From Chrysomallon squamiferum (lineage: Eukaryota > Animalia > Mollusca), in contig CM022679.1 of NCBI GenBank assembly GCA_012295275.1, positions 186,001 through 250,000 on the forward strand: a stretch of 64,000 nucleotides of DNA. The letters are read 5' to 3'. The notes below the pieces were generated by a model. It did no database searches. It had not been told where the DNA came from and was given only the letters and a program-made list of their open reading frames with translations. This document shows positions 1,674 to 63,895 of the stretch, piece after piece; the first letter of the stretch is position 1, and every line of letters starts with the position of its first letter. A program made the translations under genes and the position numbers.

Positions 1674-15033
<13,360 letters not shown>

Positions 15034-42581: not shown

Positions 42582-42783
42582 ATGACAGAATCTGAGAAAA
42601 CAGGTGAGATAATATATCATCCATTATTATTTCTATTGGTCACAAATAACAGTAACAACAACAGCTGTAATAATGTACATAAAGATGATAAATTCTGGAT
42701 TTAAATATTTAAAGTAAGCTTGAAATAACATTTCAAATGGAACAACATTTACATCTCTATAGTTATATACACAAATATATCAA

Positions 42784-42822
<39 letters not shown>

Positions 42823-45800
42823 CACACACACATACATACAGACCTACAATTGTACATACATGCAAACACAATTTCTAGAATGATAATAGCAGTTTGTACC
42901 TGTTGGAAATCATTGTTAAACATTCATTCAGTGTTTTACTGTTTATAATAATAATCTTCCAGAAAAAAAGAAGAAGTTATAAACAATATTTGAATATTTA
43001 GCATTTTTATGAAGTTTATTTTTCAACTTTCTAGTTGTTGAACTTCGTCCTAATTTGACAGAAGAGAGAAATCAGAATATCAGAGTTTTTCTTGACAGTG
43101 GACTTATGAAGATAATTCCTGGTAAAATCATAAAATAAATATAATTATTGACATTATCCTAATAGTTAAAAATAGCATTACAACTCAAACATTACAGATA
43201 TTTAAAACTTAATTTGTTGAATGTGTATAATGAATCTACTGACTTCTAGATTTTAGAGCACATAATTAAATTGTTTTGTTTATTCCATTAATGTGTTATT
43301 ATATATTTTTTTCACTTCAGAAGTTACAAATACTGAGAATGATGAAGTAAAAAGAGAATTTATCTGTGTTGTTAAAAAAGAGTGTGATGAAAATGAGGAC
43401 AGTGTTAATATGTCAACTAACTGGATTAAGAGAGAGCCAGTAGATATTATACCACAAACCTGTCCTTGGGTTAAAACGGAACCAGTAGAACCATCAAATG
43501 TTTACCTATCCACAGAGGTGGATGTTGGGAGGGTGGGGGAATTAGATCAGTTGGTGAAAAGAGAATCACTAGATTATGATGAGGACAATACAGAATTAAA
43601 CTAGTAAGTATGTTGTCTACTTGAGTTTTGTGTTTGTGTTTTTAGCATACTAGATCTTGTATTCAGAAGTTTGTGTGCTAGTTCTTGTGCCATCTGTTTG
43701 TGACTAGATGTTGTATTAATGTGTTCATGTACTAGTTCTTGAGAGTATGTATTTGTGTATTAGTTGTTGTGTCAGTGTGTTTGTGTACTAGATCTTGTGT
43801 CAGTGTTTTTGTGTACTAGTTCTTGTGCTCATGTGTTTGTGTACTACCTCTTGTGTTGATGTGTTTGTGTACTACCTCTTGTGTTCATCTGTTTGTGTAC
43901 TACCTCTTGTGTTTATGTGTTTGTATACTAGTTCTTGTGTTCATGTGTTTGTGTACTAGTTCTTGTGTCAGTGTGTTTGTGTACTAGTTCTTGTGTTCAT
44001 GTGTTAGTGTACTAGTTCTTGTGTTCATGTGTTAGTGTACTAGTTCTTGTGTCAGTGTGTTTGTGTACTAGTTCTTGTGTCCATGTGTTTGTGTCCCTGT
44101 TCTTGTGTTCATGTGTTTGTGTTCTAGTTGTTGTGTTCATGTGTTAGTGTACTAGCTCTTGTGTTCATGTGTTTGTGTACTAGCTCTTGTGTTCATGTGT
44201 TTGTGTACTAGATCTTGTGTTCATGTGTTTGTGTACTAGCTCTTGTGTTCATGTGTTTGTGTACTACCTCTTGTGTTCATGTGTTTGTGTACTACCTCGT
44301 GTTCATGTGTTTGTATACTAGTTCTTGTGTTCATGTGTTTGTGTACTAGTTCTTGTGTTCATGTGTTTGTGTACTAGTTCATGTGTTCATGTGTTTGTGT
44401 CCCTGTTCTTGTGTTCTAGTTGTTGTGTTCATGTGTTAGTGTACTAGCTCTTGTGTTCATGTGTTTGTGTACTAGCTCTTGTGTTCATGTGTTTGTGTAC
44501 TAGATCTTGTGTTCATGTGTTTGTGTACTACCTCATGTTCATGTGTTTGTATACTAGTTTTTGTGTTCATGTGTTTGTGTACTAGTTCTTGTGTTCATGT
44601 GTTTGTGTACTAGTTCATGTGTTCATGTGTTTGTGTACTAGTTCTTGTGTTCATGTGTTTGTGTACTAGTTTGTGTGTTCATGTGTTTGTGTACCAGTTC
44701 TTGTTTTCATGTATTTTGTACTAGATCATGTGTTTGTGTCCAAACAGTCAGAGGGTGAATGAGAAAACTACATTTAGAAACAATCAAATATTGAACTGAA
44801 TTAGCTACTTGAATTTAGTTTTTCTGTTGCACAGAGGTTGTGGATGAGTGAGTGAGTGTGTGTGTGTTTTGTGTGTGTGTTTTGTGTGCATGTGTGTGTT
44901 TTGTATGCATGTATATATACATTTTCTCTCTCAGTGACTGGCAGAAATAATTGAATGGTGTTTATTATTCATGTCACAGTTTAATGTTATTTACCAGTGT
45001 TACAATATATGAATTATTTATGTTACATATATAGTTTTAATTTTAGTGAAAAACAAGAAGAAGAAGAAGTTATTGAATCAAACTGTCTAAAAGATCGGAT
45101 TTACCTCCCTTATAATATTCCTCTCTTGAAACCAGAAGGACACTTTAACTCTGAAGTTGTTGTCGCCAATGTTTCTGCTGATATCACACACTGTAAATCA
45201 AAGTTTGCTGTGTTGTCTCTAGCTGATGGGAAACAAGTGACTGTCCCTCTGTCCTTGTTTGAAAACCAACCAAGTGAGACTAAGTTTGTTGTCAAATAAT
45301 TCTTGTGCGGAAGCCATATTATCAAGAAAAATTGTAACATTCATACTACTTGTGTCATTGACATATTTTTCATTCAAAGTTATAAACTAAAGTTCACTGA
45401 AATATAAAGGTTAAAAAAAAAAAAAAAAAATTATATGAGTTTTTCGCTGAAATATTTGAAATGTCTCTCTTAGATCATTCCTTAATTTTCTGATGATCTG
45501 TTGATATTCAGTTTTCATTTTATAATAAAATAATGTATTACTGAACATTTTTAATGGTAATACATAAACAAATATTAAAAAATTAAATAAGCTGTGATTA
45601 GTTGAAGGATGAAATTAACAAATATTTAATTTCTTAGAGCACTTACATTATTACATATATTTTCCAAAAAATGTATAAATCTATTAAAAAAAACCTGAAT
45701 GAATGAAATAACATTTAACTTCAGTATTATTATTGCTCATGTAAAACGTTCATTATTTATTTTATAACTGTATGTTAGTTTTTTCAAATGTAATAACATT

Positions 45801-48800
45801 ATTTTGAATCATTACTTTTAATAAATGTCGACTAAAGAAGAAGAAAAAATAATTATAAATAAATGAATAACTGACTAACTAACTACCTAAATAAATAAAT
45901 GAATATATAATGTTGGTTATAATTGTTTGTTATGTGTTTAAAGTTTGTTTGTTTCAGCTCAGTGTATCAATAAGTTGACATTTCTGAATCGGAATCCTGA
46001 GATGCCAGCTGTGTTAAACCCACCAGGTGACATTTTAAATATTTTATAAAACATAAATAAATACGTTTATTTTAATTTAGGATTTTAACTTTAATTTTTT
46101 TAGTTAATTTATTTATTTAATTATTATTTTTCCTTTTCTTTTTTTTTTAGATCTTCATCCGTGTATTTTGAAGAGAAACATTTGGGCACCACGCGATGGT
46201 TTTACAACAATTAAAAATATTCCATTAAGCAAGTATGAAGTTATACAGTTTATATGAGGCAGTAGATTTGTAATTACTTTTAGACTGTTTTGAGAAATAT
46301 AGAGTAAATCTGTTACATAATTTGTTACTCACTGACGTCAGTATTTGTTTAAAACTGCAAACAGATAAATAAAATGTGAAATAATCCTCACAAAATTTTC
46401 ACACTTTTAATTCTTTTATATTATTTTAAGAAAAGTCACTTTTTATATATTACTTGTTGATAAACTGTTACACTGTAAGTTAGTTGTTGAACTGACCTAG
46501 GTTGTGGGTAGTTTGTAAAACAGTTGGTTTTAAAAGATGAGATGTCTATAAGTCGGAACATGTTGCTGTACAATAAAACTTCTCCAACAGTGACATTATT
46601 TTAGAATTAGATTGTATAAATGGTCTTCAGTTAAAAGTTAATGTATTGACTGCTAGCTTTAAGCTGTATTTCAGTTGTGAAAGTCCAGGAAGAACACATG
46701 ATTTTAAAGAAAAGACCAAGAATGGAATATATCAACACATCAGTCATTCTTAGAAAACACAAAGAAAAACTGAGGTATATGATCAAAAGAAAGAAAGCCA
46801 GTTTAGAAGAGAAGATTCAGCAGGAAGTGAATGTAAATTTACAGATTTTATTAAATTTATGACAAGTGTTGTTTAAGAATGTCCACACACAGTCTGACTG
46901 TGATGGGGAATGAAATATAAGAACATCTCTGAGTGAAATCATTTTGACGTAACATGTTATACAATTTGAATTTTCTCTCATTATTTCTCTTTCTTAAACT
47001 TTGTATTTTAGCAAGAGGTAGCAGATGCAGTCAGAGAACGAGATTTTCTGAAGAAAGAAGAAATAAAACGAAGACGTTTGAGTGAATCTGACTCACAGCT
47101 GTGTCATTTGTGTAAGAAACAAATAGATGAAACAGAGTAAGTGTATTATTGTGACACACACATATATATATATATACATATGCACACACACATGTATATA
47201 CAAACATACATAGGGGTCATTCCGTGTCAAATCACCCAAAAAAAAAAGAAATTTAAACCCGACCGTCTCAGATTTTTATGAAACTTGGTATACTTGTTGA
47301 CTGGGATCCCACAGCACCAAATATGAAATTTTAGCTCAATCAGACCAGTGGTGTGGGAGATACGGCCCTCTGAATTTTGAGATTTTTGCCAAAAATGGGT
47401 GTGACCACCAACCTTAGAACCCTCATATCTCAGGAACTACTGGGCCAATCTTCATAAAATTGGTATTGTTAGAAAGGCAAAATGACAAGGATACCAAATC
47501 TGCCATTTTTGTTTAGTTTGGAAAATATTGGAGTACCTTGACCTTTTGACCTTTGCTATGACCGTGAAATTGACCGTGTGGATCACGTGATCTTGAGATG
47601 ACCTTTATTGAAATTTAATCTCCCACATGTTAACTAAAACATATAAAAGTTTCCTGGGTATAATATTTTTTGTTTAGCCACAATATAGATTTAAAAAATG
47701 CACATACATGAAAATAACACCTTTTCAGCCATTAACATCTGATTAACTAAAACCTGAATGATCAATTCTGGATGCTAGGAATCACCATCTCTCTTGATCA
47801 TCGAGTAAGACATTGTAGGCCTACATGTATGCATAAAGTTCACATATAAAAGTTTCCTGGGTATAATATTTTTTATATATTTTTATGTGTCTGTATGTAT
47901 GTATACATGTGTATGTGAGTGTGTACACATAAACACACACACACACTCACAAACATATATATACTCATACATTGCTACCTGCTAATAAGCAATCAAATTG
48001 AAAATGAATTTAAAAACAAAAATTTAACAAGATATCACACACAAGGTTAGAGACATTTCTGTTTCTGTAGATTGTTTGTGGACTGTGAACTCTGCTCAGC
48101 CTGGTTTCATGGTTCGTGTGTTGGTCTCACTACTGTAACATATCTCAAGTACATGGAAGCTTTCCTCTGTAAAGAGTGTAAAGAACAGCAAGACAGCACA
48201 TACCAGCAACTTCACTGTATTTGTAGAACACCTCTAGATGATGGAAAGTAAGTCTTAATTTTAAACTTTGCAAAATTCTACATTTGAAAGGAAATCTGAA
48301 TTTCGAACTTTGTAAGAATTTCGAGAATTTAATTGCAAGTTTCTTGGGAAGAAAAGTTGTTTCTCTTTTTGGTAGTTTTTATTATATTGTTATTTTTTTT
48401 ATACCTATAAATAAAACTGAATGTGTTATTAGAATATTGAAATTAGCTTAAATAAATGGTGTAATCGACGATCACTTGTCTCAGTTTAGAGATCTACACT
48501 AAAAGTGATTTCTAGAATAAAACACACAGCTGTACTCTGACTATAGTTTGTAGATGCAACTAGTGTTAATACTGTCATAGAAGTTTGGCAGGTATGAGCT
48601 GATCACTGGAACAGTTCATTTACAACATAAGAATATAAAGATGGTTTTGATTGTTTCAGGTTTTACGTAGGCTGTGATGAGTGTCAGGGCTGGTTTCACG
48701 GATCATGTGTGGGCATCACTGAAGAAAGAGCCAACAAAATAGACTTCTATACGTGTCCTCTCTGTCTGGGAAAGAAAAAAGATGTGAAAAAAAAACATTT

Positions 48801-49613
48801 CTTAACAGACTCTGATTATGAGAGGCTTTGGGATCTTGTTTGTAATGTTAAGGTATGAGAAATGATGTTGTTAGTTTTTTTATGTCACTACCAGTATGAA
48901 ACCTGATACTGCTTCATACTGCATGTTTTACTGGACTTTCTTGTCTTTCACACAGTATTTAGTTATTAAATTACTAAGTAGTGTTATGGATTTTAAATGA
49001 AAATATAGTATTGCTAGTTTTAAATGACACTTATAAATTTTGTTTCAGAATCACAAGATGTCAAAAACACTCAAAGTTACAAATGTCACAGCTGAAGATC
49101 CTCATGGTTATGTTGTAGAAACTCGAACTGTAGGTTTGTTAAATTTTGTAAATTTTAAATATACTCAGTGGTTTGTTATACTTTGTAATATAGACATATT
49201 AAATATATCCAGTGGGCATTATATTTTGTAAACCTGATATATTTTAAATATACTCAATGGGTTTATTATATTTTCAGATAATAAAAAGATTAGTTACTTT
49301 GCAAGATACTGTAATTTTTAGCTTTAATAATTATTAATAGGTTTGTTATATTTTGTAATAGTTGGTGTGTTATATTCTAAAAAATACAGTAGGTATATTA
49401 TTGAAAAATGTGTTTTTAACTTCAGATCTGAGTGTTGTTGAAAAGAGACTTATTTTAAAACATTACGACACACTTGCTGACTTTGTACATGACATGACAA
49501 CGATGTTTCACAACTGCAGAATGAAACACACGAGCAGTTCAGCACCGTATCAGTGTGCAGAAATCCTAGAATCTTTCTTTGTTCAGAGACTGAAATCACT
49601 GAGAATAAAATAA
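42582..49613 (+). CDS. Partial, divergent BPTF/NURF301 paralog: novel N-terminus + coiled coil + 2 PHD fingers + degenerate bromodomain
   Basis: Exons ~42582-42603, 43035-43121, 43321-43603, 45047-45273, 45958-46027, 46151-46232, 46664/46675-46832, 47012-47136, 48071-48247, 48660-48852, 49049-49133 and 49426-49613 can be joined in frame. [28 protein letters not shown] matches the BPTF coiled coil; two Cys4-His-Cys3 PHDs; DLSVVEKRL...HNCR...[16 protein letters not shown]. The start codon and the 46151 exon junctions are uncertain. Confidence 0.82.
43620..44740. repeat. ~1.1 kb intronic minisatellite, 28 bp unit TGTGTTCATGTGTTTGTGTACTAGTTCT
   Basis: Tandem units, homogeneous in the centre and decayed at the edges; begins just after a splice donor. 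Confidence 0.96.
47213..47875. mobile_element. Non-autonomous DNA-transposon remnant in an intron of the BPTF paralog
   Basis: Abrupt compositional shift starting GGGGTCATTCCGTGTCAAATCACCC inside a (CA/TA) microsatellite; atgaaacttggta and accttgaccttttgacc motifs; internal ~30-bp duplication. Second terminus not found. Confidence 0.5.
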
Positions 49614-49614
49614 T

Positions 49615-49935
49615 ACAGTGATCATTATCTTATCATCAATGTCTTCATCATTGTCTTATCATCTGTATGGTGATCGTTATTTTATCATCAGTATAGTGAT
49701 TATTATCATGTCATCGGTATGATCATTTTATTATCAGTATAGTGATAATTATTTTACCATCAGTATAGTGATCATTATATTATCAATATGGTGATCATTA
49801 TCTTATCAGTATAGTGATCATTACCATAACAGTATAGCTATCATTATTTTATCATCAGTATAGTGATCATTATCTTATCATCAGTGTATTGATCGTTATT
49901 GTATCATCAGTATTGTGACTTTGTTTTATCATCAT
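49615..49935. repeat. ~23-26 bp minisatellite immediately after the stop codon (3'UTR)
   Basis: Repeats of cagtatagtgatcattattttatcat. Confidence 0.88.
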
Positions 49936-51526
49936 TAGAGGTTATGAAAATTGCACTATGTAATTAGTGAGATTACTTTAATCATCACTTTTGATCTTGT
50001 TATAACTTGTTAAATTATCTTATTTTCTAATTGGTAAATATTTTATAATTTATTACGAGTAATAATACACGTTTCAGTTACTAAGGTTAATAGTGATGTT
50101 TGTTCAATGGATTTTAACAGCACAGTCATTTCACATTTAAGTAGGTTATCTTCAATCTCAAATTGTGTCATCATGTCTTCTGATAAATAAACTACAATTT
50201 ATTTAATATATAAAGATTATGAAACTGCAGATGTTACATGGATAATACAGTTAATTTTAAAAAACATGATGTTATTAATATGTATTTATACTGTGAGGAC
50301 ATAATGTACTACATATAAAACACACTTTGATGAGGTGACTGTGCTAAATGAAAACTTTGAAAATGTTAACTTTCATATATACAACATTTTATTAATTTTG
50401 AGTTTTTGTTTCTTAAAGAGCTGCTTGTGATAATTATTTTGAGTGTGTGAGACAGTGATTTAAAGTAAATTATCAGTTTGTGAGTTACAAGCAAATTAAA
50501 CACAAGTTTATGATAATTATGACTAATTGTCTTATTGTTAGTATATGCAAACATGTGCATATGTGTTTAACTGTTTCTTTGATCAGTGCACTTTGTCAAA
50601 TCTGAAACTTTTAAAAGTTAACTTTATGAAAATGTTCTCATTTGAACGCACAAAGCATTCTGTTTTAACATAATATTTAACATTTAATTACAGCTTTTGG
50701 CATTTTAATGTTCACTGACGGAATTGTTCATTGTTTTAAACTGTTTTGTTTGTTAAATCAGCAACTTTGTGTGTTATTATTTGGCATTAGCTAAAATACA
50801 TTAAAAAATAGATGTGATGATGATGATAAATTAATATCAACAACAACAGTAATAATAAATTAAAATTTTATATAAACTGATTCTGTATGCTATTTTTAAA
50901 ACATGTTGGCAATTTTTATTTATTTTATATATTTATATATCTGTCTTGCTGTATGTCTGTCTGTTTAAATGATATTAATACTGTTATTGAACTGAAATGT
51001 TAATAAATGTTTGACTGTCGATTTTTGAGTCTGTTTAAAGAAACAAAATGGTATGTTTTAAAAAGATGAAATCAGTTAGAAATGGATTATTAAATTATTA
51101 GTGTTTAATTTTTCAGAGAATCTGGAATGTTTTTCAGGTATTTATCATTATTTATTTTATAAATTCATTAGACTTGTTCCTAAATACATGTCACAAACCT
51201 ATACATAAAAAATGTTAATATTAATTAATTAAAAATTTGTTTCATTTCAAATATAAATCTGAAATGTATGGCTTTGGGGCTATTTTCTGTTATAGGCAAT
51301 TCCCCAGTTATCAATGAATGTTACCCCAAAAAAAAAAAAAAATATTGAAAATGGTGAACATCCTGTATTTAAAAACTCAAAACATAGCACACATTTTGTG
51401 CAGAAAGTATCACACTATATTTAATTTATAATTCATGGTAAAATTCTAGAACTCTCAGAAATTTAAAATGATTCCATCACACCTATTTGACCAAATATAT
51501 CTGCCAAAACTTACCCTGTTATCAAA

Positions 51527-62745: not shown

Positions 62746-63895
62746 TCAGAATCTTTCCCGCATGGATTTTAATCTCTGAGCAAAAAATGTTTCCAACACC
62801 TCAGCACACTGGAAAAACGGAGAGTCATGTGGGTTGTAGAAACGACAATTGTCAAATATTTTTGTAACATCTTTTACGAAATCATTGAGTTTCTTGTACA
62901 TCTTTGAATTAAGTCGCTTCTCCACAGTAGACAAATCTGAAATAAAACATTTTTAAATTTCAGTTTAAACAGTGACATCTGTACACTTCAGTTTAAACAC
63001 AGTAACATTTATACACATCAGTTTAAACACAGTAACATTTATACACATCAGTTTAAACACAGTAACATTTGTATGCTTCAGTTTAAACAGTAACATCTAT
63101 ACACTTCAGTTTAAACAGAGTAACATTTATAAATAACAAAAACACACATTTTGTAAAACAAAATCAGTCTGTTTTTAATCCTCTGACAATTTGTTTCTTT
63201 ATGTTAAAAAACCCTCCAACAAAAGAAAAATATCAAAGTAAGTTAATACTACAGATTGATTGTTAAATTCAAGAATGAAACTTTTTAATGTTGATTCACT
63301 CACCCATGGGATCTTTGACAACTTGATAATAATCAGGGACTTCCTTGGGGTCCACGGGTTCCAAAAATGGCCATGCCATCTTGTGTGACTGGAAAAAATA
63401 CGTATATTTTAAGAATTTTTTTACTCTTTTCATTAGACAGTAAACAATCATTGATAAATAAAAAAAATATTCCAATTGGTTAGATATTTTCTTCTTTATT
63501 ACTGTTTCAGTATTGAACACTGAAACATATAATTTAACAAAATACTGTTTTTATTACTTTGTACTAACAGATCAGTTTTATGTACAAAGAATACCTGCTG
63601 TATTTTCTTTAAAATTCTGTTTTCTCTGTTTTTCATATTTAACAAAATACTGTTTTTATTCCTGTGCCCTAACAGATCAAAGTTTTATATACAAAATACC
63701 TGCAGACTTCTGAGTAGTCGTCTGAGACATTCATACTCCTTGTCAGTGAGAGACTGCTGTGTAATAGGAGACTGCATCTCCTTCTGCTCACAGTTTGGAC
63801 ACAGGTAAGTGTCCATGCGGTCAGCCTCCTGTTTTGAGATCCCTACACACTCACCATGAAACCAGTCTTGACAGCGGTCACATCCAATGTAAAAT
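62746..63895 (-). CDS. BPTF: 3' end of nucleosome-remodeling factor subunit BPTF/NURF301 (last PHD + bromodomain); the gene continues beyond the window
   Basis: Exons 63700-63895, 63304-63388, 62746-62936: [18 protein letters not shown]...; [37 protein letters not shown]...[26 protein letters not shown]. Confidence 0.95.
62958..63130. repeat. ~30 bp minisatellite at the last BPTF acceptor
   Basis: Repeats of tcagtttaaacacagtaacatttatacac. Confidence 0.9.

Follow-up and report, generated by a model that had tools for sequence, protein, structure and literature searches.

The PHD-bromodomain module of BPTF (NURF301) is the textbook example of bivalent histone reading and is also a drug target. 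Both BPTF products that lack the DDT domain and bromodomains that do not read acetyl-lysine are known. DDT is the domain by which BPTF works with ISWI, and Caenorhabditis makes a DDT-less C-terminal BPTF product, NURF-1.D (Yin)/nurf-1-2, which in some species is a separate gene; the C. elegans D isoform is essential, its PHD/bromodomain reading is dispensable, and it has been proposed to oppose the ISWI-binding form (PMC6752949). MLL1, TRIM28/KAP1 and SP140 have a PHD-adjacent bromodomain without a canonical pocket, which functions there as a scaffold, as an allosteric partner or in accepting SUMO (PMC3326523, PMC8303718). Here we describe a BPTF paralog within 64,000 nucleotides of the Chrysomallon squamiferum genome (contig CM022679.1, forward-strand positions 186,001 to 250,000), which we call the window and in whose own numbering all coordinates are given. 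The gene is a lineage-restricted variant of these themes and not a new class of system. We assign a probability of roughly 45% to the reading, drawn from sequence, that it is a spliced copy of the BPTF 3' exons, conserved in the deep-sea snail Gigantopelta aegis, whose product would be a mark-blind chromatin adaptor tuning NURF through the BPTF coil that it has retained.

Like BPTF/NURF301, the paralog has a pre-PHD coil, two PHD fingers (PHD-A and PHD-B), a bromodomain and the characteristic layout of the last three exons. This C-terminal part is of BPTF descent, with BPTF 2F6J as its best PDB match (E 4e-48), and groups with mollusc BPTFs at 98/96 support. Unlike BPTF, it is 564-586 rather than ~2600-3000 amino acids (aa) long, and neither DDT nor any other N-terminal BPTF domain was found in it; its WPF motif, ZA-loop Tyr, BC-loop Tyr and PHD residues Y10 and Y17 are replaced, and it has evolved faster, with 48 unique changes against 6 for BPTF in a relative-rate comparison. 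With NURF-1.D it shares the DDT-less C-terminal BPTF architecture and a similar coil, which in a C. briggsae D-like protein matches the BPTF coil profile at 14.8 bits. However, the nematode gene was split with only ~200 aa duplicated (PMC6752949), whereas here the PHD-bromodomain exons were duplicated and the parent stayed canonical, and the C. briggsae proteins retain the PHD cage, the ZA Tyr and the Asn. In contrast to MLL1, TRIM28/KAP1 and SP140, the paralog descends from a well-studied reader whose intact gene lies 13 kb away, has kept the length of its ZA loop, and has the pocket Asn in two of three copies.

The window gene comprises 12 exons over 42582-49613 on the + strand (Table 1) and encodes 564 aa, including an X at a frame break. 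Of the words sampled from 45000-50200, a share of 0.30-0.36 was present in the RNA-labelled runs X1-X4, all from one study, and 0.88 in run X5; contigs of the RNA-labelled runs X1, X2 and X4 and of X5 were placed on 44750-47150. In all three RNA runs examined, contigs link exons 3-9 by splicing and have an open frame over exons 4-8, and the first 30 nucleotides (nt) of exon 9 form a loose end behind 47136; X5 contigs show none of the splice joints over 44750-47150. An apparent joint at 46239-46684, which has two mismatches and a single intervening letter, is properly 46232-46675 less one base, since the two flanks of seven letters are unlike at just two places and the loose end before 46684 equals the first eight letters of exon 7. 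For exons 10-12 there is indirect support: the part left of 47150 accounts for only 0.18 of the X1 word share of 0.36, and adding exons 9-12 would predict 0.28 and an untranslated region 0.40, while one X4 contig extends 746 letters beyond exon 8, where exons 9-12 sum to 643. In contig X4-9 the stretch before exon 4 is 771 letters long, compared to 392 coding nt in exons 1-3. The basis of exons 1 and 2 is homology to the G. aegis protein, and the splices of exons 10-12 are inferred. An earlier, sequence-only reading of this locus had named spliced transcripts as its first check, and the joints for exons 3-9 supply them. It had also begun the gene at 46664, but the gene does not start there, and splicing passes over that acceptor: in the RNA contigs 46232 is joined to 46675, beyond it upstream come three further exons and then the 43603 end of a fourth, and homology to the G. 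aegis protein carries the gene to the ATG at 42582.

Other RNA contigs cover parts of introns. A 169-letter, low-depth X4 contig runs up to a GT at 44750-44837 in intron 3, a possible alternative or first exon, and low-depth contigs keep the 3' part of intron 6 at 46363-46705 (X1, X2 and partly X4) and intron 7 at 46838-47028 (X1). Many repeat contigs are drawn to 45860-45910. By eye, 47215-47840 in intron 8 deviates in composition and resembles a repeat insertion, within which a 27-mer is duplicated.

The window letters contain one extra base at 46683 that is missing from all four runs examined: contigs of X1, X2 and X5 are without it, and spliced contigs of X1, X2 and X4 cross the site one letter shorter. 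Over 45618-47150, X5 differs from the window by three substitutions and five small indels, all intronic except 46683. As printed and with the real splice, the window letters go out of frame at 46683 and run into a stop at codon 283, and the paralog can no longer be called intact-looking on these letters. Either the assembly has slipped at this base, or the assembled haplotype carries a null allele.

In the paralog the last three exons are 193/85/188 nt long and in BPTF 196/85/191 nt, with matching phases and GT-AG ends, and the common intron positions show that the copying took place at the DNA level. The mirrored exons and the DNA-level inverted duplication put forward by the sequence-only reading are thus both upheld, copy and parent lying on opposite strands. 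The gap of ~13 kb and the inversion are likewise confirmed, but three whole genes, ATG12, a Snf7-type gene and PIG-X, intervene, and therefore the two are not a simple head-to-head tandem pair. A blastn comparison of copy and parent introns found no similarity, its three hits all being exonic.

A search with the last exon found, at 77% identity, an 'uncharacterized protein' of 586 aa in G. aegis (XP_041363891.1, LOC121379372; P0001 in our alignments). It is an ortholog over its whole length, with 299/550 identical positions (54%) to the paralog model, and differs in keeping Asn148. The last exon of a third copy is present on an ENA contig (P0111) and is 83-85% identical to P0001. No further ortholog was found by word searches (14, 4224 and 36 candidates), which clustered or unannotated copies would escape; among the best 150 of 3726 matches in a HMMER search of 1.84 billion representatives only P0001 and P0111 were paralogs, although copies inside 50% clusters would escape; and metagenome scans gave no paralog locus (32 and 117 pattern matches, none confirmed). 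Splits within the family of G. aegis have been dated to 40-116 million years ago (PMC7895826). The main text of that paper contains no 'BPTF', 'bromodomain' or 'PHD finger', although its supplementary gene tables could list the gene, and our literature search returned no title on such a BPTF reader-cassette paralog. Five Anopheles records (P0005-P0009, 728-808 aa) hold the BPTF C-terminal part alone with canonical pockets, and are split genes or split annotations.

Identity between the two orthologs is unevenly distributed: the N-terminus shares 96/268 residues and the coil 31/65, against 31/49 for PHD-A, 39/48 for PHD-B, 15/24 for the ZA loop and 49/62 for the bromodomain helices, and the ZA loop differs from the N-terminus at p=0.015. 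All PHD zinc-ligand positions align, and identity over exons 9-12 is 69-79%. The ZA exon is 20/29 identical between the orthologs and only 8/29 and 7/29 to the window BPTF, and therefore the rewrite itself is conserved. In addition, at 21 of the 104 sites that are invariant in three mollusc BPTFs, both orthologs share the same new residue. Trees unite the paralog copies at 100/100 support on a stem of ~2.5-2.9 changes per column with tips of 0-0.37 (0.34-0.37 for the window copy versus 0-0.05 for G. aegis), and the long stem and short tips point to rewiring followed by conservation. The window BPTF clusters with Lottia (support 87/83-91). With the uncertainty that long branches bring, the approximately unbiased (AU) test rejected the paralog as sister of the window's own BPTF (p=0.018), and did not reject its placement in a six-row mollusc clade (p=0.059).

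Between paralog and window BPTF the proportion of nonsynonymous differences (pN) is 0.34 and that of synonymous differences (pS) is 0.84, which is saturated. In simulations of neutral copies at 44-51% identity, using substitutions only, the open frame survived in 0-4 of 2000. These values, together with the conservation between orthologs, support purifying selection, and the C-terminal half of the paralog is, judged from the aligned sequences, under constraint. A pseudogene was rejected: the one frameshifting base in the window letters is set against the open RNA frame over exons 4-8, the full-length ortholog and the constraint, and the gene is very probably functional in the lineage.

Residues are numbered here after 2F6J, and frequencies refer to 204 aligned rows, 85 of them distinct and spanning all key sites, of which 83 are not paralogs. 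W91-P92-F93 is K-T-L in both orthologs (W in 59, P in 78 and F in 81 of the 83 other rows). Y105 is lost in both, to G or, depending on the alignment, to P (Y in 75/83), and Y147 is K in all three copies (aromatic in 77/83). N148 is H in the window and N in P0001 and P0111 (N in 73/83), and F154 is P in the window and V in the other two copies (F in 41/83). Both orthologs are without all four of F93, P92, Y105 and the PHD residue Y17, and P92, F93 and Y105 are jointly absent from one of the 83 other rows. In bromodomain pockets the ZA Tyr, the aromatic residue before the Asn, and the Asn have described roles (PMC3326523), and F154A abolishes acetyl-lysine binding by BPTF, F154A and W32E serving as null mutants (10.64898/2026.10.09.758058). 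From these substitutions we infer that the pocket cannot hold acetyl-lysine in the canonical manner, and the product likely no longer reads this mark. The ZA-loop and BC-loop peptides quoted in the sequence-only reading are correct, and its conclusion that canonical acetyl-lysine binding is lost probably stands on the substitutions. The pocket loss it described applies to both orthologs for WPF and the ZA-loop Tyr, but the Asn is lost in the window only, and the change from Asn to His is not general. Four other BPTF-like proteins (P0094, P0123, P0023 and P0101) have 7-8 pocket positions changed by pairwise alignment, and could be independent degenerate copies or alignment error.

The cage of PHD-B is altered as well. 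The four residues of the H3K4me3 cage are Y10, Y17, Y23 and W32 (PMC4225485, PMC8246079), and in both orthologs they read H/L/Y/W, which departs from the BPTF-type cage; other rows are aromatic at Y10 in 81/83 and have Y at Y17 in 81/83. In PHD-A of both orthologs the first cysteine has moved one place and G25 has become D. The loss thus extends beyond the bromodomain, contrary to the earlier description of it as selective. Since W32, Y23, G25 and D27 are kept, PHD-B probably retains docking to the H3 tail, either in weak form or with an altered preference for methyl states. An AlphaFold2 model of P0001, built from 42 relatives that are mostly BPTFs and hence biased towards BPTF, has a long helix at 301-353, both fingers and four helices, with helix confidence (pLDDT) mostly >90. 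Its ZA loop has pLDDT 56-70 and the short ZA helix is absent. Isolated BPTF bromodomains superpose on the model at TM 0.75-0.88, and for the Atlas's own model the TM is 0.81. Both zinc fingers and the four-helix bundle are thus predicted to fold still, in agreement with the fold maintenance suggested from sequence.

Upstream of the fingers, the coil is the BPTF pre-PHD coil, a profile of 62 BPTF coils scoring 28.5 and 19.4 bits; a literature search for a partner of this coil found none. Residues 1-270 are predicted to be disordered, and the P0001 model places strands at 30-32 and 38-40. No Pfam family was detected in exons 3-4, residues 1-290 gave no usable Atlas feature hit, and the Pfam scan of P0001 found only PHD and Bromodomain above cut-off and no DDT. 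When the N-terminal 258-280 aa were compared with long BPTF rows, four of five gave no hit and one gave a short weak hit, to Argopecten isoforms, which bears out the absence of a DDT-type N-terminus. That hit pairs residues 10-49 of the G. aegis protein with 1924-1963 of Argopecten BPTF and scores 32.0 bits, against 27.7 for the highest of 1000 shuffles. Profiles did not support it (hidden Markov model -0.5 and -2.3 bits, position-specific scoring matrix p 0.02-0.1, hhalign probability 0.7%), and the window copy gave no hit. A conserved 40-residue, double-hairpin-like motif lies in mid-protein in invertebrate BPTFs, at ~1938-1977 of P0034 and in 16 other BPTF rows. The N-terminus also contains psi-K-x-E motifs, the SUMO consensus: six in the window copy (shuffle mean 0.62; 0/5000 shuffles as high) and two in G. 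aegis (p=0.03), one of them at a position aligned with the window.

How might such a protein act? NURF301 without its C-terminus still assembles NURF (PMC2705796), and since the paralog is without DDT it should neither build nor capture the remodeller. With changed pockets it would also be a poor competitor for marked nucleosomes, and a histone-mark decoy, which would need those pockets, does not fit. As an adaptor, the paralog would bind whatever the BPTF pre-PHD coil binds, and may in this way damp NURF at certain loci or steer it elsewhere, like the role proposed for NURF-1.D, with the bromodomain bundle serving as a protein-contact surface and some H3 docking persisting. The NURF antagonism suggested earlier would then be possible through the coil, although not through ISWI capture by a C-terminal piece. 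Several observations weigh against this adaptor. The window's own copy is frameshifted, the entire RNA support consists of contigs of one study, and G. aegis and P0111 still have the anchoring Asn148. Between the orthologs, PHD-B and the bromodomain helices are better conserved than the coil, which speaks for the folded domains as the most important part. NURF-1.D, moreover, is thought to act via a 207-aa shared region, and the paralog's mid-BPTF match is weak and not backed by profiles.

The cassette may instead have been re-programmed, the new ZA loop and His/Leu cage binding a different ligand such as another acyl mark, lower or no H3K4 methylation, or a non-histone peptide. Residues fixed in both species within a loop of identical length, the shared replacements at BPTF-invariant sites, Asn148 in two of three copies and PHD-B as the best-conserved region all favour this, as do DIDO1, with His-containing PHD cages that bind H3K4me3 pH-dependently (PMC8246079), and the single Y17E change solved with H3K4me2 (PDB 2RI7 title). 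It sits less well with the low model confidence and missing helix of the ZA loop and with the Asn lost in the window copy, and we consider it possible but doubtful. Slightly more doubtful is a bolder version, in which the snail lineage rebuilt both BPTF reader pockets in one burst and then froze them, yielding both a new-ligand cassette and an independent, free-standing NURF antagonist that parallels nematode Yin. Alternatively, the protein could be a SUMO platform independent of NURF, its cassette promoting SUMO attachment and recruiting silencing factors in the manner of TRIM28 and SP140, in which the PHD finger drives the neighbouring bromodomain's SUMOylation (PMC8303718). The enriched psi-K-x-E motifs suit this idea, but they sit in the disordered N-terminus rather than the bromodomain and are common among nuclear proteins. 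In BPTF, moreover, a helical linker separates PHD and bromodomain, unlike the packed TRIM28 cassette, and the proposal is unlikely.

The frameshifting base, the longer window tip with its extra pocket changes N148H and F154P, and the low-depth contigs that retain pieces of introns 6 and 7 could instead reflect a once-useful duplicate that is decaying under relaxed selection in the window's lineage. Yet that base is missing in all four runs, the zinc-ligand positions and exons 9-12 agree with G. aegis as described above, and in the simulations neutral decay would have brought stops, making this quite improbable. More improbable still is a bromodomain that continues to bind acetyl-lysine, in a protein acting as a simple competitor for BPTF's nucleosomes: the Asn in G. 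aegis and P0111 would allow it, and true BPTFs themselves vary at W91 and F154, but P92, F93, Y105 and Y147, structural and pocket residues across bromodomains (PMC3326523), are lost together, and the first three of these are jointly missing in a single other row.

The gene lies among others with Pfam support within 19265-62000: a tektin (-), an FHA and forkhead gene of FOXK type (-), a WD40 gene (+) that we take to be CFAP52-like, ATG12 (+), the Snf7-type gene (-), presumably CHMP6-like, and PIG-X (+). Long intronic tandem arrays of 28-nt and 13-nt units occur at 43648-44734 and 12787-14419.

Table 1. Exons of the BPTF paralog and of the parent BPTF gene in the window.
Feature	Position	Strand	Remarks
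Paralog coding exon 1	42582..42603	+	ATG at 42582; start of G. aegis P0001 aligns; GT donor
Paralog exon 2	43035..43121	+	Conserved N-terminal hairpin-like motif; 17/29 identical to P0001
Paralog exon 3	43321..43603	+	Acidic, predicted disordered, with psi-K-x-E motifs; last 30 nt form loose end before 45047 (X1, X2, X4)
Paralog exon 4	45047..45273	+	RNA contigs; joint 45273-45958 GT..AG in 3/3 RNA runs
Paralog exon 5	45958..46026	+	RNA contigs; 2/23 identical to P0001
Paralog exon 6	46151..46232	+	RNA contigs; joint 46232-46675
Paralog exon 7	46675..46832	+	Start of BPTF-derived coil; coil profile 19.4 bits; extra base 46683 in window only
Paralog exon 8	47012..47136	+	Coil end and first half of PHD-A; joint 46832-47012 in 3/3 RNA runs
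Paralog exon 9	48071..48247	+	Rest of PHD-A, start of PHD-B (Y10H, Y17L); Pfam PHD; RNA loose end
Paralog exon 10	48660..48852	+	Rest of PHD-B, linker, helix Z; Pfam PHD; 46/64 identical to P0001; splice inferred
Paralog exon 11	49049..49133	+	Rewritten ZA loop; 20/29 identical to P0001, 8/29 to window BPTF; splice inferred
Paralog exon 12	49426..49613	+	Bromodomain helices A-C, BC loop, stop; Pfam Bromodomain; 77% to P0001; splice inferred
Parent BPTF last exon	62746..62936	-	
Parent BPTF ZA-loop exon	63304..63388	-	Canonical pocket residues
Parent BPTF PHD-B exon	63700..63895	-	BPTF gene runs off window

Our literature search found no earlier case of a duplicated BPTF reader cassette with pockets both rewritten and conserved beside an intact parent. 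The paralog and the intact BPTF next to it form a natural pair for asking what bromodomains do besides reading acetyl-lysine, and with the paralog one can also test whether NURF antagonists without DDT arise repeatedly in evolution.

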